Source: an uncultured delta proteobacterium
Lineage (GTDB): Bacteria > Desulfobacterota > Desulfobacteria > Desulfobacterales > B30-G6
Length of the DNA: 64,000 nucleotides
Reading direction: 5' to 3'
Assembly (NCBI GenBank): GCA_963823335.1
Contig: CAWGLD010000007.1
Coordinates: 64,001-128,000 of the forward strand
Part shown: positions 1,308-17,038 of the stretch, piece after piece
Numbering within the stretch: the stretch's first letter is position 1
How the letters are laid out: each line of letters begins with the position of its first letter
Program-made: the position numbers and the translations under genes
Notes under the pieces: generated by a model
Databases searched by the model: none
What the model saw: only the letters and a program-made list of their open reading frames with translations
What the model was told of the DNA's origin: nothing

Positions 1308-1470
1308 ACCTATCTCAAAAATGTCTTTTGCCCCAATCTCTGTGTTGCTCTCTCGTTTCAACTCCTCAAAATACAGAAGTATTCCTCCGGGTTGAAACTT
1401 GAGATCGCCTTGATTTGACGAAGATCCCGCGCTTTTTGCGGGGGAAAAAATCCTATTAAGGAGAGGATAA

Positions 1471-2880
1471 ATGGAAAACGTAATGACCCGAATGGGGGAT
1501 GGAAGCCGGATTGAAATGACTGCGGATGACGTCCGGAGGGATTTGGAAGCCGGTAGCCAGGAAGCTGCCGGACGCGCAAACGTACCTGCCCTGATCGATG
1601 ACGAGATAAATTACCTGATGGATCTCTTTCAATCCAAAGATCGTGTGGTGGGAGTTGAAATGGGCAAGGAAGTCTGTTTGAGCTATGACAACATGACGTC
1701 TAAAATCAAACGGGCTCACATCCCCATCAGTAAGATACAACAACTGCTGTTGTTCGAAAGAGGGCTGGGTGCCGACACGCTGGAACTGACCCATATTGAC
1801 TACAGTTTCAAGCAGTGTAAACACGTGGTGCAGTATGAAAAACCGAACATGGAACAGGCGGTACTGCAGACCATTGCCCCGATTTTCTATGGCGCCATGC
1901 CGAACCTCGGTCTGTACAGCGTACCCGACGGACCGGTGGTCAACCCTGGCGACCTGCTACCCGAAGGAAAGATTACCGAGGCCCAGCAAGCCTATGAAGA
2001 AATGGCGGAATACGCCATCAAAGACATGGTCTACGTGGGTAGTGAACTTTACGAGAAAGCCGGTGCGGACGGTATAAATTTCGACACTACCGCAGCTTCC
2101 GGAGATGCCGAATTTTATGCGACCTTGAAGGCTGTTGAAATCCTTCACAAAAAATATCCCGACATGGGTATAGAAATGGGAATGTCCGGTGAGTTTATAT
2201 TGGGCATGCACGGAGATATAGAATATAACGGTGTACGCTTGGCCGGGCTTTTCCCCCAGGATCAGGTTAAACTGGCCCAAAAAGCAGGGGTAACGATTTT
2301 CGGCCCGGCCATCAATATTCTCACCAATGACTCACTTCCGTATAACCTGGCTCGTTCACTGGTTTTTACCAAAGCCTGCTCTGAGGCCTCGGATATTCCG
2401 ATCCATGCCAACCTGGGCATGGGTGTCGGCGGTGTCCCCCTGACCCTCACGCCCCCTCTGGATGCCCTGTCGCGGGCATCCAAAGCACATGTCGAAATTT
2501 GCCGTTTGGACGGGTTGTAGGTGGGGGTCGGCGACCCGCTGGGAATGCATGCTGCACATGCAGTTGTCTCGGGAATGGGCGGATTACGAACTGCCGGAGA
2601 TCTGGTAGCGCGTATGCAACTGAACCGGGGTATGCGAATCGATGCAGCCAAAGCGTATGTGGCGGGAAAACTGGGTGTCACGGTCGCCGATCTGGCGGAC
2701 ACGGTTGTCATGAACGAGGTCCGGGAAGATCTGGATATCGGACGTGTCAACGAAACACCCGCTGTCGCCAAGGGGATCGATGCCAAATTCAGAATAGCGG
2801 AACGCCTTGACTTGGAAATCAACTGCGTCAATATGTTTATGAAAAGAGTGGGCATTGATTCTTACCACGCATTTAAGTAG
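1471..2880 (+). CDS. mtbB: Dimethylamine:corrinoid methyltransferase, pyrrolysine-containing (in-frame TAG at 2518-2520, codon 350; 469 aa)
   Basis: ORFs 1471-2520 and 2521-2880 are one frame joined by TAG; junction [38 protein letters not shown] matches the MtbB Pyl-site motif; RBS AAGGAG upstream. Confidence 0.93.
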
Positions 2881-2907: not shown

Positions 2908-3105
2908 ATGAAAACAATCCATGAAACAGTCGCTGTCGTTGTCGCCGGAGGCGGCACTGCCGGGCATGTGGCCGCAATTCAAGCTGCCAGAGCCGGTGTA
3001 AAGACCGCCGTGATCGAAGCGGGAAGCATGCTGGGGGGCACCATGACGGCCGGCGGTGTGTCGATGCCCAATCATTTTTTTTTCTTGGTTTTGGATCAGG
3101 TTTAA
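2908..3105 (+). pseudogene. N-terminal fragment of an FAD-dependent oxidoreductase
   Basis: VVVAGGGTAGHVAAIQAARAG...LGGTMTAGGVS Rossmann start, then a T-run and a stop after about 65 aa. Confidence 0.75.
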
Positions 3106-3177: not shown

Positions 3178-4650
3178 ATGCCGATCGAAAGAACCGGTGT
3201 ATCTGTCTTTAACGGCCTGGGATTGAATTTTCTGACCCGTGACGAACTGGATACCATTCATTCGGGTGCCTGCCATATTCTTAAGCATACCGGCGTGCTG
3301 GTGGAGTTTGAAGACGCCGCCGATCGGTTGCACAGTGCCGGGGCTTTTGTGTCACGGTCGGGGAAAAACTGGCTCGTTAAAATCCCCGAGTGGCTCGTGA
3401 CCGAAAGCCTCGCAAGCACACCCAAAAGCGTCACGTATTTTGCCCGGGATCCGGAAAAGGATTTCCTGCTGGAAAACAACCGGGTCGGCTTCGGAACATT
3501 TGGAGAGCAGGTCAATATCATCGATCCCATTACCCGTAAATATCGCCCTTCCACAAAGCAAGACTGCTGCAACGTCTACCGCCTGATCGACGCACTCGAT
3601 GAACTTGCTTTCTGCCAGCGAACCCTCTGCCCGGGCGATCAGCTGCCTGCCGCCCAGGCGGTCCACAATTTTCAGGCCCTTATTACCCACAACAGCAAGC
3701 ACATCACCATCGGCATGGTTAACAGATCCTGCGTGGAAGTTATTGTACAAATGGCGGCAGCCGCCGTGGGCGGCATGGGCAAACTGCACCAAAGACCCAT
3801 CTGTACCTGCTCCTGCTGTGTCACCAGTCCCCTGACCCTAACCACCCAGTTCTGTGAGGCCCTTATAGCTGCTGTGGAAGCAGGTATCAATGTGGATGTC
3901 ATGACCATGGCCCTGGCAGGCGGCTCCGGTCCCGTCACCCTGGCAGGAACCATTGTTTTGACCATGGCCGAGCTTTTAAGCGGTCTGGTCCTGGCCCAGA
4001 TCACCTGCAAAGGGGTGAACGTCACCTTTGGTTCCTGCAGCACCATTATGGATTTGAAAACCGGCCTGGCATCAACGGGCGCACCGGAATGGGGTCTGGT
4101 GGGCGCCGCCATCGCGCAGATGGCGAACTATTATCACATCCCCTGCCGGGTGGGGTCAGGGGTCAGCGATTCCAAGCTGCCCGATGCGCAAGCCGCCTAC
4201 CAGTTCACCCTGAACGCTTTACCGCTGTCGCTCGCCGGCGCCAATATGATATTCGGGGCCGGCGGCATCGACAGCGGGCTTGCTTTTGACTACGCCAAGC
4301 TGATCATGGATCATGAATGCATTTGCCATATCCGGAAATTACTGGAAGGCGTGCGCGTGGACAACGAAACCATGGCGCTGGATCTTATCCATGACATCGG
4401 CCCCGGAGGTACGTTTCTGATTCACCGCCACACCCTCGAACGGACCAGATCCCAATCGGCCGTCCACTTGTTTGACCGAGGCACGCGGGAAGCCTGGATG
4501 GAAACCGCCGGTGGAAAGGATCTCACGGAAAGGGCCTACGGAAAGGCGCTGGAAATACTGGAGAGTCATCAGACCAAGGCGCTGCCGGACGGCGCCGCAG
4601 AAACGATCAATGGTCTGCTGGATGAATTTGAAGCCCAAATAAAATCCTAG
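3178..4650 (+). CDS. mttB: Trimethylamine methyltransferase (MttB) superfamily protein, non-pyrrolysine
   Basis: SPL, AGGSGPVTLAG, MDLKTG..STGAPE and SDSKLPDAQAA motifs; Val at the Pyl-equivalent position (GSGVSDSK). Confidence 0.9.
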   Translation: MPIERTGVSVFNGLGLNFLTRDELDTIHSGACHILKHTGVLVEFEDAADRLHSAGAFVSRSGKNWLVKIPEWLVTESLASTPKSVTYFARDPEKDFLLENNRVGFGTFGEQVNIIDPITRKYRPSTKQDCCNVYRLIDALDELAFCQRTLCPGDQLPAAQAVHNFQALITHNSKHITIGMVNRSCVEVIVQMAAAAVGGMGKLHQRPICTCSCCVTSPLTLTTQFCEALIAAVEAGINVDVMTMALAGGSGPVTLAGTIVLTMAELLSGLVLAQITCKGVNVTFGSCSTIMDLKTGLASTGAPEWGLVGAAIAQMANYYHIPCRVGSGVSDSKLPDAQAAYQFTLNALPLSLAGANMIFGAGGIDSGLAFDYAKLIMDHECICHIRKLLEGVRVDNETMALDLIHDIGPGGTFLIHRHTLERTRSQSAVHLFDRGTREAWMETAGGKDLTERAYGKALEILESHQTKALPDGAAETINGLLDEFEAQIKS

Positions 4651-4769: not shown

Positions 4770-6113
4770 ATGAAAGAAATTAGGGAAGCTGCCAGGAAAA
4801 TACCGGTTCTGGCAGAAACGGATGTGCTTGTCGTGGGTAGTGGACCCGGAGGCCTTGCGGCGGCACTTGCTGCCGAACGAGAAGGCGTCCGTACCATCCT
4901 GTTGGAGCGATACGGATGCTTCGGGGGCAATATCACCCAGGCAGGTGTTGAATCTCTCGCCTGGTACCGTCACGAGGGCACCATAGATGCTCAGGGCATC
5001 GGTACCGAATTGGAGCAACGCGCCCAACAAATGGGCGCAACCGATCCCGAGCCCCAGTCCCGGAGTGAAGCTTTCAACACGGAACTATTCAAGATCGTGG
5101 CCGACACCCTCGTTCAGGAGACTGACATTATCCCGATCCTTCACTGTATGGCAGTGGAAACGGTGATGGACGGTGATGTCATAAAAGGGATCATCACGGA
5201 GAGCAAATCGGGTCGACAGGCCATCCTCGCAAAACGGGTAATCGACGCCACCGGCGATGCTGACATCGCTCATCTGGCGGGGGCACCCTGGCGCAAGGCT
5301 CCCAAAAATGAATTGTTGGGCGTAACCGTGACGTTCGCCGTGACAGGTGTCGATCGAAAGCGTTTCCTGGCACACGTAAAAAAACATCCTTCCACCTATA
5401 AAGACTGGGGGGTTGAAACGTCAGGCAAAGAAGATAACATGTTCAGCCCGTATCTGCGTGTTCCGTTTCAATTGGCCAGAAACGCCGGTGAAATTCCAGA
5501 AAATGTGCAGATCGCGGGAACCTGGGGCCGGATCAGCGAACAGGGAGACGCCACGTATCTGAACGTTGTTTATATGCCGGGCTTTGACAGTACGGATGTT
5601 CGTGATCTTACCCGCGGAGAAATAGATGGACGCCGCCAAGCCATGTGGGCGGTCAATGCACTGAAGAAATATACGCCGGGTTTTGAGAACGCAGCGCTCA
5701 GGGCGTTCGGTTCATCCCTGGGAATACGGGAGTCGAGAAAAATCATCGGGAGATACAATCTGACCGGAAACGACGTTCGCAATCAGGGACGTTTCGACGA
5801 CGCTATGGGTATCTTTCCGGAATTTTTAGATGGGCATGGGATCCTGAGCCTACCCACGACCGGGCGTTACTTCCAGGTACCCTATGGCATCGTGATTCCC
5901 CAAAAGGTGGACAACCTGCTTGTGGCGGGCCGCTGCGTGGCAGGCGACCGTATTTCTCATTCAGCCACTCGCCAGATGATGTGCTGCACAGTTACCGGAC
6001 AGGGAGCCGGCGTAGCGGCGGCACGCTCTATCAAAGAGAAAGTGAAGTGCCGTCAAGTGGATATTGCCGCCCTGCAAAAAGCCCTGTCAAAGCAGGGGGT
6101 GCGAATAAATTGA
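4770..6113 (+). CDS. FAD-dependent oxidoreductase
   Basis: VVGSGPGGLAAA, IDATGDADIA, GIRESRKIIG and LLVAGRC motifs. Confidence 0.85.
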   Translation: MKEIREAARKIPVLAETDVLVVGSGPGGLAAALAAEREGVRTILLERYGCFGGNITQAGVESLAWYRHEGTIDAQGIGTELEQRAQQMGATDPEPQSRSEAFNTELFKIVADTLVQETDIIPILHCMAVETVMDGDVIKGIITESKSGRQAILAKRVIDATGDADIAHLAGAPWRKAPKNELLGVTVTFAVTGVDRKRFLAHVKKHPSTYKDWGVETSGKEDNMFSPYLRVPFQLARNAGEIPENVQIAGTWGRISEQGDATYLNVVYMPGFDSTDVRDLTRGEIDGRRQAMWAVNALKKYTPGFENAALRAFGSSLGIRESRKIIGRYNLTGNDVRNQGRFDDAMGIFPEFLDGHGILSLPTTGRYFQVPYGIVIPQKVDNLLVAGRCVAGDRISHSATRQMMCCTVTGQGAGVAAARSIKEKVKCRQVDIAALQKALSKQGVRIN

Positions 6114-6138
6114 CAGGCAAGACCAAGAAAGGAGCGCG

Positions 6139-6915
6139 ATGAGTATTCAGGATTTCACAATGGACTTTTTCTCGTTGAAAGGGAAAAATGCCATCGTCAC
6201 CGGCGGCAATACCGGACTTGGACAGGCATTCGCGTTGGCGCTGGCCAAGGCAGGTGCGAACCTGTTTGTACCCAGTATTCTGGATGATGACGGTGGTACC
6301 AAGGCGCTTGTTGAAGCGCAAGGTGTTGCGTATGAATTCATGCAGATCGACATTACCGATGACGGTGCGCCCAGGAAAATAATCGAAACCTGTGTCGCAA
6401 CATTCGGATCTGTCGATATCCTGGTAAACAGTGCCGGCATCTGCATTTCGGCAGAAGTCGAAAGCTTTGGCAGGGAACCGTGGGACAAGATGGTGCACAT
6501 CAATTTGACCGCCGCATTTGAACTCAGTTTTGAAGCGTCAAGGTTCATGATTTCTCAGAAAAGCGGTAAAATTATCAACATCTGTTCACTTTTCTCGTTT
6601 CTAGGGGGAAAATTGTCTTCGGCCTATGCCGCCACAAAGCATGGCCTGGCAGGTTTTACGAAAGCCTATTGTGATGAACTGGCTCAGCACAACATTCAGG
6701 TCAACGGGATTGCACCGGGGTATTATAAAACGGCTATTACGGAAAGGACAAGAAGCAACCCGGAAACGTGTCAACGGGTTTTGGATCACATCCCCGCCAA
6801 TCGCTGGGGTGAGACAATGGACCTGATGGGTACGACCATATTCCTGGCCAGCAAAGCTTCAGACTATGTAAACGGCCATATACTCGTGGTTGACGGAGGC
6901 TACCTGGTTCGTTAA
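6139..6915 (+). CDS. ygcW: SDR oxidoreductase (YgcW/KduD-like)
   Basis: TGGNTGLG, YAATK, DYVNGHILVVDGGYLVR; synteny with ygcE- and ygcU-like genes. Confidence 0.75.
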   Translation: MSIQDFTMDFFSLKGKNAIVTGGNTGLGQAFALALAKAGANLFVPSILDDDGGTKALVEAQGVAYEFMQIDITDDGAPRKIIETCVATFGSVDILVNSAGICISAEVESFGREPWDKMVHINLTAAFELSFEASRFMISQKSGKIINICSLFSFLGGKLSSAYAATKHGLAGFTKAYCDELAQHNIQVNGIAPGYYKTAITERTRSNPETCQRVLDHIPANRWGETMDLMGTTIFLASKASDYVNGHILVVDGGYLVR

Positions 6916-8351
6916 TGAAAAAACAATATGTCATAGGTCTTGATGGGGGAACGCAGAGTACGAAAGTGGTCATTTTCGATCTGGAGGGCAATCTTGTATG
7001 CCAGGGGAAAAGAGAACTTCAACCCATGCACATGCCCAGGCCCGGGGTAGCGGAGCACCCGGATGACGACTTGTGGGATACCATCGTGGCGGCAAGCCTA
7101 CAGGCAATGGCGTGCTTTTCGGGCGACATCAAATCCATATTGGGTATCGGCCTCTGCACCATTCGTTGCTGCAGGGCCTGTCTGAAAGAAGACGGCAGAC
7201 TGGCTTCACCGGTCTTGAGCTGGATGGATCTGCGCCTGGCCCGCCCCTATGAGCACGAGAATCCACTGGTCAGGTATGTGACGACAACTTCCGGATATAT
7301 CACCCACCGTTTTACAGGTCAGTTTAAGGATACGGCTGCCAATTACGAGGGGATGTGGCCCATCGATAAGGACACCTGGCAGTGGAGCAAAGATCCAGAC
7401 GTCTTAAAAACCTTTAATGTACCAAGAAACAAGCTCTTTAAACTCGAAATGCCCGGAACAATCCTCGGGTATGTAAGCAATGAAGCCTCGGAACAAACCG
7501 GAATCCCGGCTGGAATTCCGGTGGTTGCAACCGCAAATGACAAGGCGGTGGAAGCCCTGGGTGCCGGTCTAACGCCGGGCAAAACCGCTCTCGTTTCCTT
7601 GGGAACCTACATCGGCGCTATGGTATACGGCGAAAAGAATGTAACGGATCCAAACAGCTTTTTCACCAACCTGGCATCCATACCCAACGACTATCTCTAC
7701 GAAAGTGGCGGCATACGTCATGGAATGGGAACCGTCAGCTGGTTGAGAAATCTTTTCGGTGAAGACGTCCGCAGCATAGCGCAATCCCTCGGCATTTCCC
7801 CCGAAGAACTCCTGAACAGTGAAGCTCAAAAAGTTGCCCCGGGATGTGATGGGCTGATGACGGTTCCGGAATGGCTGGCACCGCCGGACAAACCTTTTAA
7901 AAAGGGCATCATGATCGGGTTTCACGGGCGCCATACCAGGGCGCATCTATACCGCTCCATGTTGGAAGCCATTGCATTGACCATGAAAAACCATGTCGAA
8001 GCCATGTGCCGGGAACTCGACATGGGACTGGACCAAATCATCGTATCCGGCGGGGGGGCACGAAGCGATGTGTTCATGCAGATTTTTGCAGACGTGTTCG
8101 GCGTCCCGGCCATCAGAAATGATATCACGGATGCCGCCGGTCTGGGTTCAGCCATTTGCGCCGCCGTGGCCGCGAAGGCTTATGACACTTTTGAGGCGGC
8201 CATTGAACAAATGGTCGGGATACGTGACAGGTTTTATTCCATTGCGAAGCATACCTCCCTATACGAGAAGCTGAACACGGATGTGTACAGACATATTACA
8301 GAATTTACGGATCCTGTTCTGGAGAAATCATATCCCATCTTCAAACAATAA
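6915..8351 (+). CDS. ygcE: FGGY-family carbohydrate kinase (YgcE-like)
   Basis: IGLDGGTQSTK, SLGT and VSGGGARS motifs. Confidence 0.8.
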   Translation: MKKQYVIGLDGGTQSTKVVIFDLEGNLVCQGKRELQPMHMPRPGVAEHPDDDLWDTIVAASLQAMACFSGDIKSILGIGLCTIRCCRACLKEDGRLASPVLSWMDLRLARPYEHENPLVRYVTTTSGYITHRFTGQFKDTAANYEGMWPIDKDTWQWSKDPDVLKTFNVPRNKLFKLEMPGTILGYVSNEASEQTGIPAGIPVVATANDKAVEALGAGLTPGKTALVSLGTYIGAMVYGEKNVTDPNSFFTNLASIPNDYLYESGGIRHGMGTVSWLRNLFGEDVRSIAQSLGISPEELLNSEAQKVAPGCDGLMTVPEWLAPPDKPFKKGIMIGFHGRHTRAHLYRSMLEAIALTMKNHVEAMCRELDMGLDQIIVSGGGARSDVFMQIFADVFGVPAIRNDITDAAGLGSAICAAVAAKAYDTFEAAIEQMVGIRDRFYSIAKHTSLYEKLNTDVYRHITEFTDPVLEKSYPIFKQ

Positions 8352-8382
8352 AAAAAATGAGTTTCCCAAAGGAGAAAGAAAC

Positions 8383-9828
8383 ATGTCCTTGAAAAGGGAT
8401 CAGATTGCAGAAGCGCTTGAAAATATCGTGGGAAAAGAACACGTCGTAACAGACGAACAGGTTTTAAAGGAGAGCAGTGTCGACCGTTTCAGAAGATTCG
8501 AAGCCTACCACGGCGTGTATCAACTGCCCTTGCCTGCCGCGGTCGTATATGTGAACAGCACCCAAGAGGTAGCCGCCGTAATTGAATTCGCCAACGAAAA
8601 CAAGATCAATGTCGTTCCACGAACCGGTCACTCGGCCACGGAAGGCGGTCTTGAAACCGCTTTGGAAAACTCCATTGTCGTTGATGGATCCGGTATGAAT
8701 CAGATCCTTGACATCGACACTTATAATATGCAGGCAACCGTGCAATGTGGCGCCTCTCTTCAAGAACTTGACGACCGTTTGAGAGAACAAGGTTACACAA
8801 CCGGCCACTCACCCCAATCAAAACCGCTGGCGCAGCTGGGGGGGCTGGTTGCCACCAGAAGTATCGGCCAATTTTCGACCCTATACGGCGGTATTGAAGA
8901 CATGGTGGTGGGGTTGGAAGCGGTTTTTCCGGGTAGCGGCATTACCCGTATAAAAAACGTACCTCGCAGGGCCGCCGGGCCTGATATCCGTCATGTCATC
9001 ATTGGCAATGAAGGCACGCTTTGCTTTATCACGGAAGTTACCGTTAAAATTTTTAGATATTTTCCTGAAAACAACAAATTCCTGGGGTATACCCTGGATA
9101 ATATGAAAACAGGTTTCGAAATTCTCCGGGAAGTCATGGTAAATGGTTACAGACCATCCGTCGCACGTCTGTATGATCCTGAAGACGGTTCCTACCACTT
9201 TTCTCATTTTGCTGAAGACAGGTGCGTATTGATTTTTGTGGCTGAAGGTGTAAAGCCTCTTGCGGACGCAACGGCCACGTCCATCGAGGATATCGTGGCC
9301 CGCTACGACGAATGTGTGAAAGTCGATCCAAAGCTGATCGAAAAATGGTTTGCCCACCTCAACTGGGACCCGGCCAATTTAGCGGCCGAAAAAGCCGAAA
9401 TTATGGAAACCAAGAACGTCTGCAATACCACTGAAATATCCGCAAATTGGGGGCTCATAAATAACATCTACGACGTGTGCATGCAACGGGTAAGAAACGA
9501 GATTCCCGACCTGACACTGTTGGGGGCCCATTCTTCTCACAGTTATCTCAACGGAACCAACCTCTACTTTGTATACTTTTATAATGTGGTTGACTGCAAA
9601 CCCGAAGAAGAACTCACAAAGTACCACCTGGCCATTAAAAAAATCATCGTTGAAGAGACGATCAAAGCCGGCGGCTCCATGTGCCATCACCACGGAGTCG
9701 GCAAGCATAGAACCCATTGGATCGAACAGGAATATGGATCCTCGTATTCCATCCTCAAGAAATTGAAAAGCGCTTTCGACCCCAACAACATCATGAATAT
9801 GGGGACCATCATACCGTTGGAAAAGTAA
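8383..9828 (+). CDS. ygcU: FAD-binding oxidoreductase, alkyl-DHAP-synthase-like (YgcU)
   Basis: TTGHSPQS, QFSTLYGGIED and HHHGVGK motifs; AAAGGAG RBS before ATG at 8383. Confidence 0.85.
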   Translation: MSLKRDQIAEALENIVGKEHVVTDEQVLKESSVDRFRRFEAYHGVYQLPLPAAVVYVNSTQEVAAVIEFANENKINVVPRTGHSATEGGLETALENSIVVDGSGMNQILDIDTYNMQATVQCGASLQELDDRLREQGYTTGHSPQSKPLAQLGGLVATRSIGQFSTLYGGIEDMVVGLEAVFPGSGITRIKNVPRRAAGPDIRHVIIGNEGTLCFITEVTVKIFRYFPENNKFLGYTLDNMKTGFEILREVMVNGYRPSVARLYDPEDGSYHFSHFAEDRCVLIFVAEGVKPLADATATSIEDIVARYDECVKVDPKLIEKWFAHLNWDPANLAAEKAEIMETKNVCNTTEISANWGLINNIYDVCMQRVRNEIPDLTLLGAHSSHSYLNGTNLYFVYFYNVVDCKPEEELTKYHLAIKKIIVEETIKAGGSMCHHHGVGKHRTHWIEQEYGSSYSILKKLKSAFDPNNIMNMGTIIPLEK

Positions 9829-10632
9829 ATGAATGTTCTGGTGTGTTTCATAACTGTTCCCGAGTTGGAGCTCCTTGACGGCCAGGATTGGGTCATCGAC
9901 AAAAACCTTCAAATCGATACCAGCTTCCTGAAACCCTCCCTGGATATCTATGACGAGAGCGCACTGGAAATCGCCTTGACTCTTTTAGATGCATCCGAAA
10001 AGACCAAGGTGCCCATGGAACTCACTGCCTTGACCATCGCCGGTCACGGAGCAACTCCCGTTCTGAAAACCCTGAATGCGCTGCGGTTTAAACGGGTCGT
10101 GCGCATCGACAACCAGGATGATCTCCGGTTCAGACCGAGGGCCATCGCTTCTGTCTTGACCCAATACGTTAGAAAACAGGGCCCCCAGGATGTGCTGCTG
10201 CTGGGTAGACAAACCAGTGTCGGTGAAAACGCGAAGACACATCTACTGACGGCGGAAATGCTGGGGTGGCCGTGCATCACCCAGGTTACCGGTATCGAAC
10301 TGGTCGACAGGAACCACTTGACGGTGACCAGCCAGGTAGATGAAGGCCAGCTCCGGCAGCAAATCCAGACGCCGTGTGTGCTTTCTGTGGGAGATGCGCC
10401 AAATACCTATATGCGGGTTCCCACACTAAAGGACCGGATGCATCTCGGCAATCGGCCCGTCGAGATCCTGTCCATCAGGGATTTTCACCTGCCGGAGGAG
10501 ACCGAGAAGCTAATAGACATGGAAATCATAAGCCATGCAAGACCCGGAATTCTCATCCAGGGGGAGACCCCCGAAAAAAAGGCCAGAGAGCTGTATGAAG
10601 TGTATTTGAAAGAAAGGCTGCAACTACTTTGA
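9829..10632 (+). CDS. etfB: Electron transfer flavoprotein beta subunit (YgcR-like)
   Basis: MNVLVC...YDESALEIAL and LLGRQTS ETF-beta motifs. Confidence 0.8.
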   Translation: MNVLVCFITVPELELLDGQDWVIDKNLQIDTSFLKPSLDIYDESALEIALTLLDASEKTKVPMELTALTIAGHGATPVLKTLNALRFKRVVRIDNQDDLRFRPRAIASVLTQYVRKQGPQDVLLLGRQTSVGENAKTHLLTAEMLGWPCITQVTGIELVDRNHLTVTSQVDEGQLRQQIQTPCVLSVGDAPNTYMRVPTLKDRMHLGNRPVEILSIRDFHLPEETEKLIDMEIISHARPGILIQGETPEKKARELYEVYLKERLQLL

Positions 10633-11627
10633 TATTCAAGGGAATACTCAATGGCTGCTCGATGAACATCGCTTCTCAGGCCGAGGAGTTGAATGGTTTT
10701 ATTGGCAAGCACTTGCGTTCAGTGGACACCATCGGCAGCACCATTCTTTTTTATTCCAGGGAAGAGCAGAAGGATGCGCTGCTTGGGTTGGTTCCCACCG
10801 CGTCCGCACAACTCATCCGTATCAGCCGCTATCAACCGGAAAATGTCCTCGAAGCGCTCGAAACCATTGAAAAGGGAGAGAGAACCCACCTGTACGTATT
10901 TCCCAGCGGGTTTGAAGGTTCGGAAATTGCCGTCCGATTAGCTTTCCGGCTGAAGGGCTCGTCTCTTGTGCAAGTGGAACAGATCGATTGTTCAAGCCAA
11001 AAGTTGATCGCAAAGAAAGCCGTCTATGCAAACCACGTTCTGGCTACTTTCAAGTTAACGAAAAAGCCCTATTGCATCTCCCTTGCCAAAGGAACCACCA
11101 ACCGTCAGCCCATAGCCAAACGCGACACTATGACAGTTACCGAGGTTGACATGACCCACCTGCATCAAGACCGGTTCATCAAGGCGTCACAATCGACCCC
11201 TTTTAAACCGGCCAGGGATCTGACCAAGGCCGCGTTCCTTGTCATTGGCGGCAACGGCATGGGCAGTCATGAAAACACAAAAAAACTCCAACAGGTTGCC
11301 GAAACGATTGGAGCCGATTTTGGTGTCAGCCGTCCTGCAGCAATGCGTGTCTGGGCGCCCATGCACCGTCTGGTTGGCGTTTCCGGGGCCATGACAAAAG
11401 CGGATGTCTGCCTTGTTGCAGGGGTTTCCGGGGCCGCCGCTTTTTATGCCGGCATCGAAAAAAGTAAATTTATTGTCGCCATCAACAAAGACATTCGGGC
11501 ACCCATCGTCAGGTCTGCCGACGTTGCCATCATTGATGACTACAAAGCGGTGATGGATGAGCTTGTCAAGATTATGACAACAAATATAACCGGGTCCAAA
11601 GGGCCAGGCTCTTTTTATACTCTGTAA
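10629..11627 (+). CDS. etfA: Electron transfer flavoprotein alpha subunit (YgcQ-like)
   Basis: GVSRPA, VGVSG, GVSGAAAF and IVAINKD motifs. Confidence 0.8.
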   Translation: MIFKGILNGCSMNIASQAEELNGFIGKHLRSVDTIGSTILFYSREEQKDALLGLVPTASAQLIRISRYQPENVLEALETIEKGERTHLYVFPSGFEGSEIAVRLAFRLKGSSLVQVEQIDCSSQKLIAKKAVYANHVLATFKLTKKPYCISLAKGTTNRQPIAKRDTMTVTEVDMTHLHQDRFIKASQSTPFKPARDLTKAAFLVIGGNGMGSHENTKKLQQVAETIGADFGVSRPAAMRVWAPMHRLVGVSGAMTKADVCLVAGVSGAAAFYAGIEKSKFIVAINKDIRAPIVRSADVAIIDDYKAVMDELVKIMTTNITGSKGPGSFYTL

Positions 11628-11698
11628 GAGATTGTTTAGCATTTAGCATTTCGTGCTTCGAATTTTAACCATTATTGAAATTGGCAAGGATACCCGTT

Positions 11699-13132
11699 TT
11701 GGAGAAGAAACTGATTCATCCCATGAGTGAAACCTTTCACGATTACCTGAAAGACGAATCAAATATGACGGGGTCGGCGGAAAGTATTTCTTTCCCGGAA
11801 AACGAAGCGGAAATCGCTCAAATCCTTCGGGAGATGCGAGGACACGGAACGGCCGTCACGATTCAGGGCGGCAAGACCGGTATCGTCGGCAGTGCAGTGC
11901 CCTTGCAGGGCCACATTATGAACCTCTCCCGCATGAAAAAAGTAAAATCCTTTGCCATTGCAAAAGATGGCCAAAGATCGGTGACGGTTGAACCGGGGAT
12001 CACCTTGCTTGAACTCCGAAAGGCGATTCAGCGGAACAAGACACATAGGGCGTTTTTCTGGCCACCGGATCCAACCGAACCAACAGCTAGCGTTGGCGGC
12101 ATTGCTTCCACCAATGCTGAAGGCACCTGTTTTTATCTTTATGGAAGATCTGCTTCATATATCTCGGGTATTCGCGTCATGAACGCCGACGGATCCATCC
12201 GTGACCTCAGGAAGGGACAAGACGCTATTGTCATCAATGGTGATTCCAAAGATCTTCTGGATGTTTATCTGAGTGGCGAAGGGATGTATGGCGTGATCAC
12301 GGAACTGACCCTGCGGTTGATACCCAAACCCAAAGAAATCTGGGGCATTGGTTTTTTCTTTGAAAACCCGGAAGAAGGGATGTCCTTTGCAGATCAGCTG
12401 AAAGCCGCCCCTTTTGACAGCCATGATGCAAATATTGCCGCCATGGAGTACCTGGATCAGACCATACTCAATGCCGTTGAAATGCATCCTTCCATGAAGA
12501 TCCAATTAAAAACGACACCTGACACGGCACTGCATATTACAGCCATGGTTTATGTGGAAATTCATGGGGATCATGAAGATGCCATCCAAGAACTTGCCCA
12601 TACGCTTTTAAAAATGAGTTCTACTTTTAACAGTGATATAGACAAGACATGGGCATTTTCCGGAGAGCCCGAGGTCGATAAGATGAGAAGCTTTCTGCAT
12701 GCCGCTGCTGAAACCGCCATCCTGCACGTTGAAAAAGCCCGCCGTGAAGACCATAGAATTACCAAAACAGGTATAGATATCAGCCTGGAGCGGGAGGGGC
12801 TGAAGGCCCTGGTTCACCGATTTGAAAAACAACTTCGAACGGAAAATTTAAAAGCCAGCTTTTGGGGGCACCTTGGCAGCGGCAGTCTGCACATCGATAT
12901 CCTGCCGGGAAATTACGAGGAGTTCGTTAAAGGCAAGACCTTGTTGGAAACATGGGCTGATAGCTTTCCAGCCCTTCTCGGGAAGGCCATCACATCGTAT
13001 GGCATTGGAAAACTGAAAAAATCGATTTTCCTCAAAACAGCCTCGAAGACACATGTCAACGATGTGCTAAAATTGAAAAAGCAATTGGACAAGAACAATC
13101 TGTGGAACCCGGGCAATATGATCGGGGACTGA
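11699..13132 (+). CDS. FAD-binding oxidoreductase (GlcD/D-lactate dehydrogenase family); start uncertain
   Basis: QGGKTG, PPDPTE..ASVGG, GEGMYGVITE and WNPG motifs. Confidence 0.8.
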   Translation: MEKKLIHPMSETFHDYLKDESNMTGSAESISFPENEAEIAQILREMRGHGTAVTIQGGKTGIVGSAVPLQGHIMNLSRMKKVKSFAIAKDGQRSVTVEPGITLLELRKAIQRNKTHRAFFWPPDPTEPTASVGGIASTNAEGTCFYLYGRSASYISGIRVMNADGSIRDLRKGQDAIVINGDSKDLLDVYLSGEGMYGVITELTLRLIPKPKEIWGIGFFFENPEEGMSFADQLKAAPFDSHDANIAAMEYLDQTILNAVEMHPSMKIQLKTTPDTALHITAMVYVEIHGDHEDAIQELAHTLLKMSSTFNSDIDKTWAFSGEPEVDKMRSFLHAAAETAILHVEKARREDHRITKTGIDISLEREGLKALVHRFEKQLRTENLKASFWGHLGSGSLHIDILPGNYEEFVKGKTLLETWADSFPALLGKAITSYGIGKLKKSIFLKTASKTHVNDVLKLKKQLDKNNLWNPGNMIGD

Positions 13133-13156
13133 GATCAACATAGGAAAGGAGACCCC

Positions 13157-14575
13157 GTGAAACAGTTTGACAAACTCTATATCAACGGCAAATGGGTACA
13201 GCCGAATAATACCGATATCATCGAGGTTGTTAACCCGGCCACCGAAAGTATCTGTGCATGCGTTCCAAACGGAAACCAGGAAGATGTGAACGCTGCCGTC
13301 GCTTCTGCGCGCCAGGCATTTGACGGCTGGGCACATACACCAGCGCAAAAGCGCGCCAAGATCATGCATGCCGTTGCAGATGAAATGCAGCGTCGTGCCG
13401 ACGAATTGATTGACGCACACGTCATCACCATGGGCTGCCCCCGTCACCTCACCGCCGGGCTGCACGTCGATGCTCCCATCGCCGCCATGCATAACTACGC
13501 AGAGCGTTCCGTACAGATGGACACCGTCGAAGAAAAAGACAACGTGTTGGTATACAAAGAACCTATCGGTGTTTGCGCCTTGATCAATCCCTGGAACTAT
13601 CCCCTTCATCAACTTATCGGCAAGGTCGCCCCCGCACTTGCCGCCGGCTGTACCATCATCGCCAAACCTGCTGCGCAAACACCGCTGCAGGATTTTATCA
13701 TGGCGGAAATTTTTGAAGCCGTGAGTCTGCCGGCAGGTGTGTTTAACCTGGTCAGCGGTTCAGGCAGCGTGATCGGCCCGGTCCTGAGCAGTCATCCCCA
13801 GGTGGATATGGTCTCTTTTACCGGTTCGACGTATGCGGGCATCAAGGTAGCCGAATCGGCAGCTCCGACGGTAAAACGTGTTTGTCAGGAACTCGGCGGA
13901 AAATCCCCATACATCATTACCGAAGACGCCGATCTTGAAACTGCCGTTCGCTACGGTGTCGAAGATGTGATGCTCAACACAGGTCAGACGTGCAATGCCC
14001 TGACCCGCATGTTCGTACCCCGGGGTTGCTATGAGAAAGCCGTCGGCATCGCCAAAAAGGCAGCGGAAGAACATATTGTCGGCGACCCAAACGATAGCAG
14101 CGTTACCATGGGCCCCATGGCATCGGCTGCACAAAAACAAACCGTACTCAATTATATCAAGACGGGCATTGCTGAAGGCGCAAGATTGGTCACCGGCGGT
14201 ATTGACATGCCGCAGGGCCTGCATGTGGGCGCCTATGTAAACCCCACTGTTTTTGCTGATGTTACCAACGACATGGTCATCGCCAGGGAAGAAATTTTCG
14301 GACCTGTTCTTTGCATGATTGCCTACGATGATATCGAAGAGGCCATTGAAATGGCAAATGACACGGTATATGGCTTAGCATCCGGAGTTTATGCCAAAGA
14401 CAAAGCGGGTGCACGAAAAATCGCCAGACGAATACGGGCAGGTCAGTGTTACATCCAGGGTGGCTATTTTAATCTGGAGGCGCCTTTTGGTGGTTTCAAA
14501 CAATCCGGAAACGGGCGTGAATGGGGAGACCAGGCCATGCACGAATACGTCGAAATAAAAGCCATCATTGCTTAG
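13157..14575 (+). CDS. Aldehyde dehydrogenase
   Basis: PWNYP, FTGS, ELGGKS, GQTC and EEIFGP motifs. Confidence 0.92.
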   Translation: MKQFDKLYINGKWVQPNNTDIIEVVNPATESICACVPNGNQEDVNAAVASARQAFDGWAHTPAQKRAKIMHAVADEMQRRADELIDAHVITMGCPRHLTAGLHVDAPIAAMHNYAERSVQMDTVEEKDNVLVYKEPIGVCALINPWNYPLHQLIGKVAPALAAGCTIIAKPAAQTPLQDFIMAEIFEAVSLPAGVFNLVSGSGSVIGPVLSSHPQVDMVSFTGSTYAGIKVAESAAPTVKRVCQELGGKSPYIITEDADLETAVRYGVEDVMLNTGQTCNALTRMFVPRGCYEKAVGIAKKAAEEHIVGDPNDSSVTMGPMASAAQKQTVLNYIKTGIAEGARLVTGGIDMPQGLHVGAYVNPTVFADVTNDMVIAREEIFGPVLCMIAYDDIEEAIEMANDTVYGLASGVYAKDKAGARKIARRIRAGQCYIQGGYFNLEAPFGGFKQSGNGREWGDQAMHEYVEIKAIIA

Positions 14576-14683
14576 CAGACTGCAGGTGATATAACCTTTG
14601 CCAAAATAACGTTCCTACTGTTCCGAAAAAAGCCGTGAGCTATATTCGGAACATATGTATTAGAAGCTATAAAGGAGATAACA

Positions 14684-15589
14684 ATGAAAATCGGATGGAT
14701 TGGACTGGGTAATATCGGAGGCATTATGGCATCGAACCTGATGAAAGCGGGGTATCACCTGATCGTACACGATCTTGAATACAAGGCCGCCGAAAAATTG
14801 ATTGCATCGGGTGCTGAATGGGCAGACACACCCCAGGCGCTGGCCGGCAAAGCGGACACGATCATTACCTCTTTGCCCGGTCCCCCGCAGGTGAGAGCCG
14901 TGATGGAGAGCGAACAAGGGGTATTTGCAGGCATCCGCCCGGGCTGTACCTGGATCGACATGTCCACGACCGATGCCGAAGAGGTGGAACGGCTCGGGGG
15001 GATTGCCGCCGAAAAAGGCGTGTCTGTTCTGGAAGCGCCCCTTACCGGTGGTGTGACCCTCGCCAAGGCAGGCGGAATTACCATGCTCGTGGGCGGGGAA
15101 AAAGACGTTTTTGAATCACAACTGCCCATGTTGCGCAAGATCGGCGGCAAGATACTCCTCATGGGACCGCTGGGAAGTGCGAGCATCGTCAAGGTCATCA
15201 CGAACCTGCTGGCGCTCGGCCACCTGATTATGGCCGGCGAGGCTTTCATGCTCGGAAACCAGGCCGGCATCGACCCGAAAGCGTTGCTTGAGGGTATCCA
15301 GGCCAGTTCCGGCAACAGTTATACCATCGAAAAAGAAATGCCGCTGGTGTACAATGGCAGCTATGACGTGGGGTTTTCAATGGCCCTGGCCTGTAAGGAC
15401 CTGGGGCTGACAATGAAACATGCTCGGAAATATGGGGTGCCGCTGGAATTGGGGGCATTGGTGGAGCAGATTTTCGTCCGGGCGAAAAGACAATACGGTG
15501 AAGCGGCCAATTCCACCCAGGCGGTGAAGCTGCTCGAAGACACAATGAATGTCTATCTGCGTGCAACCGGGTATGAGGATTTTCGGTAA
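14684..15589 (+). CDS. NAD(P)-dependent beta-hydroxyacid dehydrogenase (3-hydroxyisobutyrate dehydrogenase family)
   Basis: IGLGNIG, EAPLTGG and KDLGL motifs. Confidence 0.88.
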   Translation: MKIGWIGLGNIGGIMASNLMKAGYHLIVHDLEYKAAEKLIASGAEWADTPQALAGKADTIITSLPGPPQVRAVMESEQGVFAGIRPGCTWIDMSTTDAEEVERLGGIAAEKGVSVLEAPLTGGVTLAKAGGITMLVGGEKDVFESQLPMLRKIGGKILLMGPLGSASIVKVITNLLALGHLIMAGEAFMLGNQAGIDPKALLEGIQASSGNSYTIEKEMPLVYNGSYDVGFSMALACKDLGLTMKHARKYGVPLELGALVEQIFVRAKRQYGEAANSTQAVKLLEDTMNVYLRATGYEDFR

Positions 15590-15649: not shown

Positions 15650-17038
15650 TTATCTGATCATGGTACGCCCTTCAAACCTGTTGACGCAATTAATTTTAAT
15701 ATCCAGGGCGCTGGCAATGTTGAATTTCGCTTCAATGCCTTTGGCGCATCCAGGCAGCGGTGTCATGATGCCCAGGTTCAAATCCTGCCGAACCTCACCC
15801 ATGATCACAGGATCGGTCAAATCGGAAATTGCCACCTTCAGTTTCTCCGCCACATAAGCCTTGGCCTGTTCAATTCGCATTCCCCGGGCCATTTGCACAC
15901 GAGCAACCAGATCTCCGGCTCCTCGCATTCCGCCCATTCCCGAGGCATGCGCGTGGGTGATCGCCATGGCAAAGGGATCACCCACGCCAACCTACAAACC
16001 GTCCAGGCGGCATATTTCTACAATTGCCTTGGATGAACGCGAAACAATATCCATGGGCGGGTGATCGTTTACCGTCACCCCTCCGACCCCCATGCCCATA
16101 TTGGGGTGAATGGGAATCTGTGCCACTTCGCCACATGCCTTGGTATAGGTAACCGTGCGGGCCAGGTTCCAGGGTGCCGATTCGTTGGTGTTTGTGTTGA
16201 TCACCGGCCCGAAAATGGTAGCCCCGGCGGCCTCGGCCATCTTTACCTGGCGATGGGGATACATCCCTGCCAGGCGTTCTCCCTTGTAGGTCAATTCGCT
16301 GTGCATCCCCAGAACGAACTCCCCGGCCATGCCTATTTGAATGCACATATCCGGATATTTGGCCCTGAGCTTCTCCGTGGCCAGTAAAGCCGCGAGAAAG
16401 TCGGCATCCCCGGCAGCCCCGGTGGTATCCAGGTTGATCCCGTCAGCACCCGATTCATACATGGCGCTTGCAGCTGAAACGATATCCGCCACCAGGTATT
16501 CCACCGAGGCTTCATAAGATTGTTGTGCCTCTTCGATCTTGCCCATAGGCATCAATTCGCCCGGGTTGGGGAAAGGTCCGTCAGGCTGGCTGTATAGCCC
16601 CAGGTTGGGCTGAGCACCGTAAAACAGCGGGATATGCGTGACAAGCAAGGCTTGTTCCAAGATGGGTTGTTCCATGGTGATGATGGGTTTGACGGGCTTA
16701 TAGGAATAATCCACATGGTTCAACTCCATGGTATCAGCCCCCATGATCTTCTCATAAATCTGCAAGGCCTGGATGCGGTCCACGTTGACGCCTACTCTGC
16801 GGATTTTCAACGTTCCGGCATCGTATGTGAGAATCACTTCATGGCCCGGTTCGACGCTCAAAAACCGAAATGGGCATTTAAATATATCCCGCAGGTGTTC
16901 GAGCTCCGACTGGGTCAGGGGATCTATTTGACCTCGTTGAGCAGCATCCTGGCTGCCACGCTGCAGGTCCTCCATTAATTCTTCTTCACTCAACGCAAGG
17001 ACGGTTCCGTCCCCGTAGCGGGTTATAATGTTACGCAT
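15650..17038 (-). CDS. mtbB: Second dimethylamine:corrinoid methyltransferase, pyrrolysine-containing (in-frame TAG at 15994-15992, codon 349; 462 aa)
   Basis: ORF 17038-15992 ends in TAG and continues in frame as VGVGDPFAMAITHAHASGMGGMRGAGDLVARVQ to TAA at 15650; AGGAGG RBS. Confidence 0.93.

Follow-up and report, generated by a model that had tools for sequence, protein, structure and literature searches.

A conserved mRNA hairpin follows the amber codon of a predicted pyrrolysine-encoding mtbB gene in a sulfate-reducing Desulfobacterales bacterium

The window analysed here, a stretch of 64,000 nucleotides from a sediment sulfate-reducing Desulfobacterales bacterium, contains near its start a gene (mtbB #1; 1471–2880, forward strand) for a 469-residue protein of the pyrrolysine (Pyl)-containing dimethylamine:corrinoid methyltransferase family. 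A purine-rich stretch upstream of the start codon (1459–1466, forward strand) is of the type that would bind the ribosome. From the ATG at 1471, the frame runs to a single in-frame TAG (2518–2520, forward strand; codon 350); another 119 sense codons lie between this TAG and the terminal TAA at 2878–2880. A first-pass annotation had reported this split of the open reading frame, the 119 further codons and the joined length, all of which can be read directly off the sequence. It had also proposed aligning the joined protein to the MtbB profile. The read-through product, with the junction [14 protein letters not shown] across the TAG, covers positions 3–462 of the 463 in PF09505 (profile search; E 9.8e-192; 638 bits against a cut-off of 25) and lies above the curated cut-off of TIGR02368 (504 versus 369 bits). 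The part after the TAG matches PF09505 positions 355–462 on its own. The motif given for this region, DGx-O-xGVGDP, holds at D347, G348, L349, O350, G352, G354 and D355, which are near-invariant, but not at positions 353 and 356, which vary.

In an AlphaFold2 model of the protein (Pyl entered as Lys; pLDDT 93.4), eight barrel strands are seen, with residue 350 in the last of them (residues 348–351). The best structural matches of the model are to the homocysteine domain of MetH (1q7m; Z 18.9, rmsd 3.1, 249 aligned) and to MtaA (4ay7; Z 18.1, rmsd 3.6, 250 aligned). The model thus predicts a cobalamin-dependent methyltransferase TIM barrel with the catalytic residue inside the barrel. A 349-residue product would be an unfinished barrel, because truncation at the TAG cuts strand 8 and drops the helix that follows it in the model. 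A sequence search of the PDB gave 0 MtbB structures, and the structures of MttB and MtmB are not among the fold matches listed, which is uninformative either way.

Downstream of mtbB #1 are the 5′ stub of a gene for an FAD-dependent oxidoreductase (2908–3105, forward strand), which matches only the N-terminus of PF12831 and is 88% identical to L015:11367-11539, and a non-amber gene of the MttB family (3178–4650, forward strand), which has a Val codon at the Pyl column and a true TAG stop. A second amber mtbB (mtbB #2; 15650–17038, reverse strand; TAG at 15992–15994) encodes a paralogue 56% identical to mtbB #1. Between the two amber mtbB genes, at 4770–15589, are genes for an FAD oxidoreductase, an SDR, an FGGY kinase, two FAD-linked oxidases, an ETF pair, an aldehyde dehydrogenase and a hydroxyacid dehydrogenase. 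A further mtbB paralogue (58% identical) lies ∼9 kb upstream of mtbB #1, behind an amber mttB. Repeated elements border the gene on both sides. A palindromic intergenic element at 1307–1450, with 54 genome matches of at least 80 nt, is found at the same place in L013 and not in L014, L015 or L017, and a 30-nt piece with dozens of genome copies (2877–2906) sits right at the stop of mtbB #1, at the edge of a variable cassette site. A scan for promoters and terminators gave results at chance level.

Codon 350 is TAG in 36 of 36 alignments covering this column; these come from 28 of 29 related loci, whose titles mostly read Desulfobacterales or delta proteobacterium. In a wider mtbB set it is TAG in 103 of 104 alignments and TCG in the other, and Bacillota mtbB genes have TAG in the same column without exception (57/57). 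The same is true of archaeal mtbB (63/63 loci, fetched with a Methanomethylophilaceae MtbB query and assigned to this taxon from their 72–97% identity to it). A Methanomethylophilaceae MtbB (P0276) is 44% identical to mtbB #1 over 355 columns, and its record stops exactly at column 350. The amber codon therefore falls at the Pyl column of methanogen MtbB, the alignment on which the first-pass annotation had rested its choice between a recoded gene and a nonsense pseudogene.

That the TAG arose by nonsense mutation or faulty assembly, with the gene then being a pseudogene or the source of a 349-residue protein, we consider highly improbable. Public protein sets do stop these MtbB proteins at the TAG (0 of 120 best matches cover >74% of the query), and the locus has lost a former neighbour gene; however, truncation at TAG is the normal behaviour of gene callers, and the amber column is common to two bacterial phyla and the archaea. 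Among 11 ungapped orthologues, synonymous and non-synonymous codon differences stand at 373:137 after the TAG and 1370:444 before it; the two parts are under the same purifying selection. A nonsense mutation also sits poorly with the complete set of pyl genes described below and with the TAG itself, which contigs from two DNA runs, X4 and X1 (the latter possibly the source sample), reproduce unchanged, all their differences lying elsewhere. Contigs from RNA runs, which cannot show transcription, also contain mtbB #1, and one from X16 spans the TAG with four differences. One consequence of the database truncation is that the C-terminal quarter of MtbB, and the diversity of its paralogues in sulfate reducers, are under-annotated.

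Two homologues depart from the pattern. The TCG noted above belongs to a full-length mtbB (L042:2157-3545; G014:C365), which has Ser at the Pyl column along with substitutions at two nearby conserved residues (D347V, P356L); the gene could be an unusual MtbB that does without Pyl, a copy in decay or an artefact of assembly. P0124, a singleton, is a full-length homologue of 463 residues (41% identity) with no stop at the Pyl column and a changed motif, and is possibly a natural non-Pyl MtbB. The codon preceding the TAG is also constrained. Leu349 is encoded by TTG in mtbB #1 (2515–2517, forward strand), and TTG or TTA occupies this position in 146 of 148 bacterial mtbB genes, other conserved Leu columns being mostly CTG. 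The same two codons precede the TAG in 12 of 12 amber mtmB genes of Bacillota (L255-L265, L282, L283).

The host genome (4.37 Mb, 94% complete) encodes tRNA-Pyl, with a CUA anticodon, at C2:80111-80184, followed on C2 by pylSc, pylC, pylD and pylSn. This cluster adjoins a corrinoid protein gene and a divergent pair of amber genes, mttB and mtbB. Near it is a gene resembling REP-associated tyrosine transposases (L001:5871-7091), which scores below the cut-off. The pylB gene, in the region L044:2356-7488 (G000:C1), lies apart from the other pyl genes and ends in TAG; upstream of it are genes for a methyl-THF:corrinoid methyltransferase, an aminotransferase and an aldehyde oxidoreductase. PylSc, PylSn, PylB, PylC and PylD each exceed their curated cut-offs in profile searches, and the full set is present and intact. 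The earlier suggestion that this bacterium uses the 22nd amino acid is thereby supported. Judging from these genes, Pyl is almost certainly made by PylB, PylC and PylD, charged onto tRNA-Pyl by PylSc and PylSn, and inserted at codon 350 of mtbB #1, in the last strand of the predicted TIM barrel. UAG carries two meanings here, stop and pyrrolysine, because it also ends 378 of 1811 long ORFs in the genome. A codon-model scan for further read-through returned 70 TAG, 86 TAA and 121 TGA cases, and inspection of these showed no convincing new Pyl protein.

There are five mtbB genes in the genome, all amber, the other four being 47–59% identical to mtbB #1. Of 26 matches to the MttB family, six full-length genes and one fragment have a TAG. 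The single MtmB-like gene has none, so the genome contains no amber mtmB. This gene (L043:12549-13931; G000:C7:374550-375932, reverse strand) has Val opposite the Pyl of the solved MtmB and adjoins genes for a corrinoid protein and an MtaA-like protein; non-amber MtmB homologues are common in Bacillota too. Four corrinoid proteins, two of them over the cut-off, and four RACo-type activators are encoded in the genome, and the best score against the MtbC family NF041607 is 219 bits (cut-off, 350). A corrinoid protein is encoded at G000:C2:80275-81114. The host also has dsrA and acsB. A search of 41 genomes found mtbB in 17, among them 14 of 14 other members of the family, with up to 12 matches per genome. 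All but one of these 17 also have pylSc, the exception being 74% complete; pylSc in the absence of mtbB is seen in one genome. In random genome samples, additional mtbB genes were found in 2 of 400 genomes from the phylum of the host and in none of 150 further genomes from the order of G042.

In the reaction that we envisage, the Pyl imine would bind a secondary methylamine, as the family suggests, with the chemistry taken from the MttB structure (PMC9842639). A corrinoid protein acting in trans would take up the methyl group and hand it on to tetrahydrofolate, and oxidation would follow by the Wood-Ljungdahl pathway with sulfate as acceptor, a route in line with PMC8318568. Like methanogen MtbB (PF09505, TIGR02368), mtbB #1 encodes a full-length member of the family with the amber codon in the same column. 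It differs in its host, a sulfate reducer in which the methyl group presumably goes to folate rather than coenzyme M; in having no adjacent corrinoid gene; and in being one of five divergent paralogues. The host belongs to the same group as the Olavius delta-1 symbiont (PMC1976440) and the marine Deltaproteobacteria of PMC8318568. As described there, these organisms share with it a split pylSn and pylSc, several amber mtbB and mttB genes per genome (six MtbB and two MttB in delta-1), many non-Pyl MttB proteins, the Wood-Ljungdahl pathway and tRNA-Sec. Multiple amber mtbB genes with a full pyl set were reported for a deltaproteobacterium in PMC1976440, and more widely in PMC8318568. Pyrrolysine in Desulfobacterales is thus already published, and mtbB #1 by itself is an ordinary member of its family.

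We asked what the substrate might be. Family membership makes dimethylamine the most likely one, and the score of mtbB #1 exceeds the cut-off of the TIGR02368 equivalog. In a quick tree, mtbB #1 falls in a clade of 20 rows (SH-aLRT 98) with 15 clade-specific residue columns. In 16 of these 20 members, a co-oriented gene for a DAO-GcvT fusion, whose closest solved relatives are dimethylglycine dehydrogenase and dimethylglycine oxidase, lies within 600 bp on either side, compared to 7 of 65 other mtbB genes (six of the seven flank the same gene as a clade member). A corrinoid gene is found within the same distance in 7 of the 20, and there is none beside mtbB #1. The association with the fusion, together with the low identity among mtbB paralogues and their number per genome, is what would be expected if the subfamily acted on another secondary amine, such as sarcosine, alongside a dimethylglycine-dehydrogenase-like flavoenzyme, in the stepwise demethylation of N-methyl amino acids. 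We think this rather unlikely. The flavoenzyme gene, which in close relatives occupies the site of the stub at 2908–3105, is missing at the mtbB #1 locus, and the X4 contig joins 2889 to 3076 without even the stub. Moreover, the flavoenzyme could equally process the monomethylamine product of a dimethylamine-specific enzyme, given that the genome has no amber mtmB. The link between the clade and a dimethylglycine-dehydrogenase-like gene was not found in the available text of PMC1976440 and PMC8318568. Elsewhere in the genome, an amber mttB fragment (G000:C5:310832-313494, reverse strand), which has the hairpin described below, directly precedes another gene of this type.

Within the part of mtbB that follows the amber codon, synonymous sites show an unusual pattern. 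In eight clades taken separately, the 20-codon window with the lowest amino-acid-matched synonymous divergence starts at codon 359–375. The low divergence of codons 363–385, a fixed window chosen after an initial look, was matched by 0–30 of 1000 permutations per clade; the any-window test, which is stricter, gave 0–69 of 1000. At the centre of this region, Gly376 is GGA in 85 of 85 Desulfobacterota sequences, Asp377 is GAT in 82 and Leu378 is CTG in 78; at 24 other conserved Gly columns, the commonest codon accounts for 28–82%. A tree of 148 bacterial mtbB genes, built without the region concerned, shows a single change of the Gly376 codon, versus 34–73 changes at 20 other Gly columns.

These codons form the loop and inner stem of a potential mRNA hairpin (2584–2613, forward strand; codons 372–381) that spans 66–95 nt after the UAG and presents its loop, AGAU (2598–2601), 80 nt from the U of the UAG. 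Covariation supports the pairs 2595/2604, 2592/2607 and 2589/2610, and, less robustly, 2586/2613. Third positions were paired in 84 of the 85 sequences for codons 375/378 (72.9 expected), 70 for 374/379 (42.8 expected), 61 for 373/380 (37.6 expected) and 65 for 372/381 (36.2 expected). With some 92,000 other third-position pairs as background, the nested triplet comes first of 81,072 (0.93; the next, 0.54), and it keeps this rank when the set is thinned to 68 sequences. Bacillota, which are out of sample, show the same features: GGA in 54 of 57, pairing of 373/380 in 49 of 57 (22.9 expected), and the triplet first of 82,269. In a tree-aware test on the 148 sequences, pairing at the three inner pairs survives double changes on 6 of 6, 10 of 15 and 15 of 24 branches. 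The outer pair, 372/381, fails this test (2 of 6 branches) and is unsupported in Bacillota. The local 39-nt fold of the hairpin has a z-score of −2.86; longer windows of 60–103 nt, folded around the UAG or beyond it, show no signal (z +0.66, −0.72, +0.08). In archaeal mtbB the amino acids at this site are the same, and yet GGA is used in 26 of 63 and there is no covariation or codon constraint among these 63 genes, all of the Methanomassiliicoccales type.

From this comparison, we infer with little doubt that the mtbB mRNA contains a selected, sense-strand hairpin whose loop is fixed at synonymous sites. Causes other than RNA structure could in principle freeze codons, namely an overlapping frame, an internal restart of translation, a DNA palindrome or gene conversion among paralogues. 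A GGAG lies 14 nt before codon 382 (Met382), this codon is ATG, GTG or TTG in 134 of 148 sequences, and there is a six-base palindrome within the loop region. However, codon 382 is not a start codon in the other 14 sequences, and no alternative frame is open in more than 64 of the 148; tested on this set, both an overlapping frame and an internal restart are unsupported. The flanks vary freely, yet in compensating pairs, and they tolerate G-U in the sense strand, which fits RNA rather than gene conversion or a DNA site. Such non-RNA causes are accordingly improbable.

The mtbB stem itself is a prior prediction, made in the Rfam family PYLIS_2 (RF02509), which matches mtbB #1 at 2518–2617 (forward strand) with 72 bits (gathering threshold, 36); its five matches in the genome are the five mtbB genes. 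The 3′ stem of PYLIS_2 coincides with the hairpin seen here in register and loop, and covariation supports it. The 5′ stem is unsupported: among 85 sequences, each of its 12 pairs is formed in at most 4 more than expected. PYLIS_3 (RF02510), which represents mttB, does not include the mttB hairpin described below. We did not take an Rfam match alone as evidence, since PYLIS_3 is also above threshold on the non-amber mttB (window 4164–4261), and such a match is largely coding conservation.

Published views of such elements vary. In PMC1976440, a hand search after the UAG is reported to have found no common structure. Theil Have et al. (2013; PMC3639795) give mtbB a consensus structure and mttB none; overall they report several distinct structures, with none shared. 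According to PMC2933860, nothing like the mtmB element occurs in mtbB and that element is not essential, and both this paper and PMC13663744 state that Pyl insertion requires no element. The latter adds that no targeted mechanism is known and none required; PMC12626013 (2025) likewise describes the mechanism of targeted Pyl insertion as not known in archaea or bacteria. The term PYLIS does not occur in the available text of PMC8318568. Nor did we find a description of a hairpin common to mtbB and mttB in the literature covered, which comprised titles and the openings of abstracts, mostly outside subscription journals. What is new here, on the basis of sequence comparison, is a conserved hairpin with compensating changes that is tied to amber codons in two families.

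We quantified the hairpin in each gene set with a single descriptor, comprising an AG(A/G)N loop and at least 4 contiguous closing pairs, after collapsing identical segments. At +80 of mtbB, it was found in 100 of 101 Desulfobacterota sequences, 65 of 69 from Bacillota and 4 of 62 from archaea. One caveat here is that the descriptor was derived from the Desulfobacterota set, which makes the counts for that phylum circular in part; another is the lack of independence among related rows. The hairpin of mtbB #2 lies at the same position, and the TAG-less mtbB of L042 retains it as well. MttB is unrelated to MtbB in sequence (PMC9842639). Amber mttB genes nevertheless carry a stem with an AGGN loop at +74, in the same codon phase as in mtbB. 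At this distance the descriptor finds the hairpin in 35 of 43 Desulfobacterota and 19 of 41 Bacillota amber mttB sequences (54 of 84 bacterial genes), compared to 1 of 36 and 0 of 8 non-amber mttB genes (1 of 44) and 4 of 30 archaeal ones. The non-amber genes, of which the mttB at 3178–4650 is a hairpin-less example, are an imperfect control, as their amino acids mostly differ at the site, the motif being present in just 6 of 35. The mttB stem shows weak covariation (one pair in 36 of 41 versus 28.3 expected, rank 152 of 21,123; no top triplet).

Within the host genome, the hairpin follows the TAG in 11 of 600 long ORFs ending in this codon, ten of which are amber methyltransferases. For the other stops, the counts are 1 of 589 for TAG, 2 of 1171 for TAA and 0 of 981 for TGA. 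The one non-Pyl TAG with a hairpin (C1:1909109) is followed by a stop two codons later and was taken as chance. Thus, in this genome, the hairpin marks recoded codons and not true stops. Ten of the 11 intact amber genes have it. The exception (G000:C6:92898-94310, reverse strand), alone among the six intact amber mttB genes, is divergent after the TAG. The hairpin is not universal in bacteria either, being absent at +74/+80 from 30 of 84 bacterial amber mttB and from 12 of 12 Bacillota amber mtmB (0/12 with it). In 5 of these 12 mtmB genes, an AG(A/G)N hairpin with 7 pairs occurs at +116.

What might the hairpin do? We propose that, at its own UAG, it shifts the balance from release towards Pyl insertion, a role that the comparative data make, on balance, probable. 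A ribosome decoding the UAG does not extend as far as the hairpin, so that any effect would probably depend on a factor that binds the loop. Because some bacterial Pyl genes are without it, the hairpin would be an enhancer rather than an obligatory SECIS-like signal. A competing view, which we hold to be a lesser though real possibility, accepts a genuine Pyl-containing MtbB and assigns the hairpin to the fate of the message, for example in protecting the tail that termination at the UAG leaves untranslated against Rho or nucleases, or in binding a regulator of methylamine genes. This would suit the location of the element beyond the decoding ribosome, the variation of its distance by family (+80, +74, perhaps +116), the many Pyl genes without it, and its retention in L042. 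It accounts less well for the recurrence of the same loop type and codon phase in two unrelated protein families, at distances from the UAG that agree to within 6 nt, or for the near-absence of the hairpin from non-amber mttB and true stops.

Returning to the role in decoding, we find the best explanation overall very probably to be that mtbB #1 encodes a full-length Pyl methyltransferase of the MtbB family, in a sulfate reducer where UAG has a dual meaning, and has a selected hairpin that may favour Pyl insertion. A broader proposition, to which we give slightly less than an even chance, is that Pyl-using bacteria own a codon-targeting insertion signal, made of a short stem and an AG(A/G)N tetraloop 74–80 nt past the UAG. 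Such a signal would have arisen in at least two unrelated gene families, been kept across two phyla, be absent from Methanomassiliicoccales-type archaea, and be read by a loop-binding factor. As speculation, the separate PylSn of bacteria is one candidate reader. If the proposition is true, a genome can use TAG as the stop of a fifth of its genes and yet recode chosen ones, and the hairpin is a candidate for how bacteria distinguish Pyl codons from true stops. The question is experimentally approachable because the 30-nt element has synonymous compensating changes, an archaeal control without the hairpin, and a near-zero background at true stops. Should the hairpin raise read-through, it would provide a site-specific enhancer for Pyl-based expansion of the genetic code.

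A known parallel is the bacterial SECIS, which, like this hairpin, lies inside the coding sequence, 3′ of a stop codon with a dual meaning, and has a fixed loop. The two differ in codon and in spacing, SECIS being adjacent to the UGA (PMC8318568) and the hairpin well removed from the UAG. SECIS is also obligatory and has a dedicated factor (PMC13663744), whereas the hairpin is not found in all Pyl genes and has no known reader. The host genome also has a tRNA-Sec gene (G000:C6:16589-16686), and the organism thus has both expansions of the genetic code.
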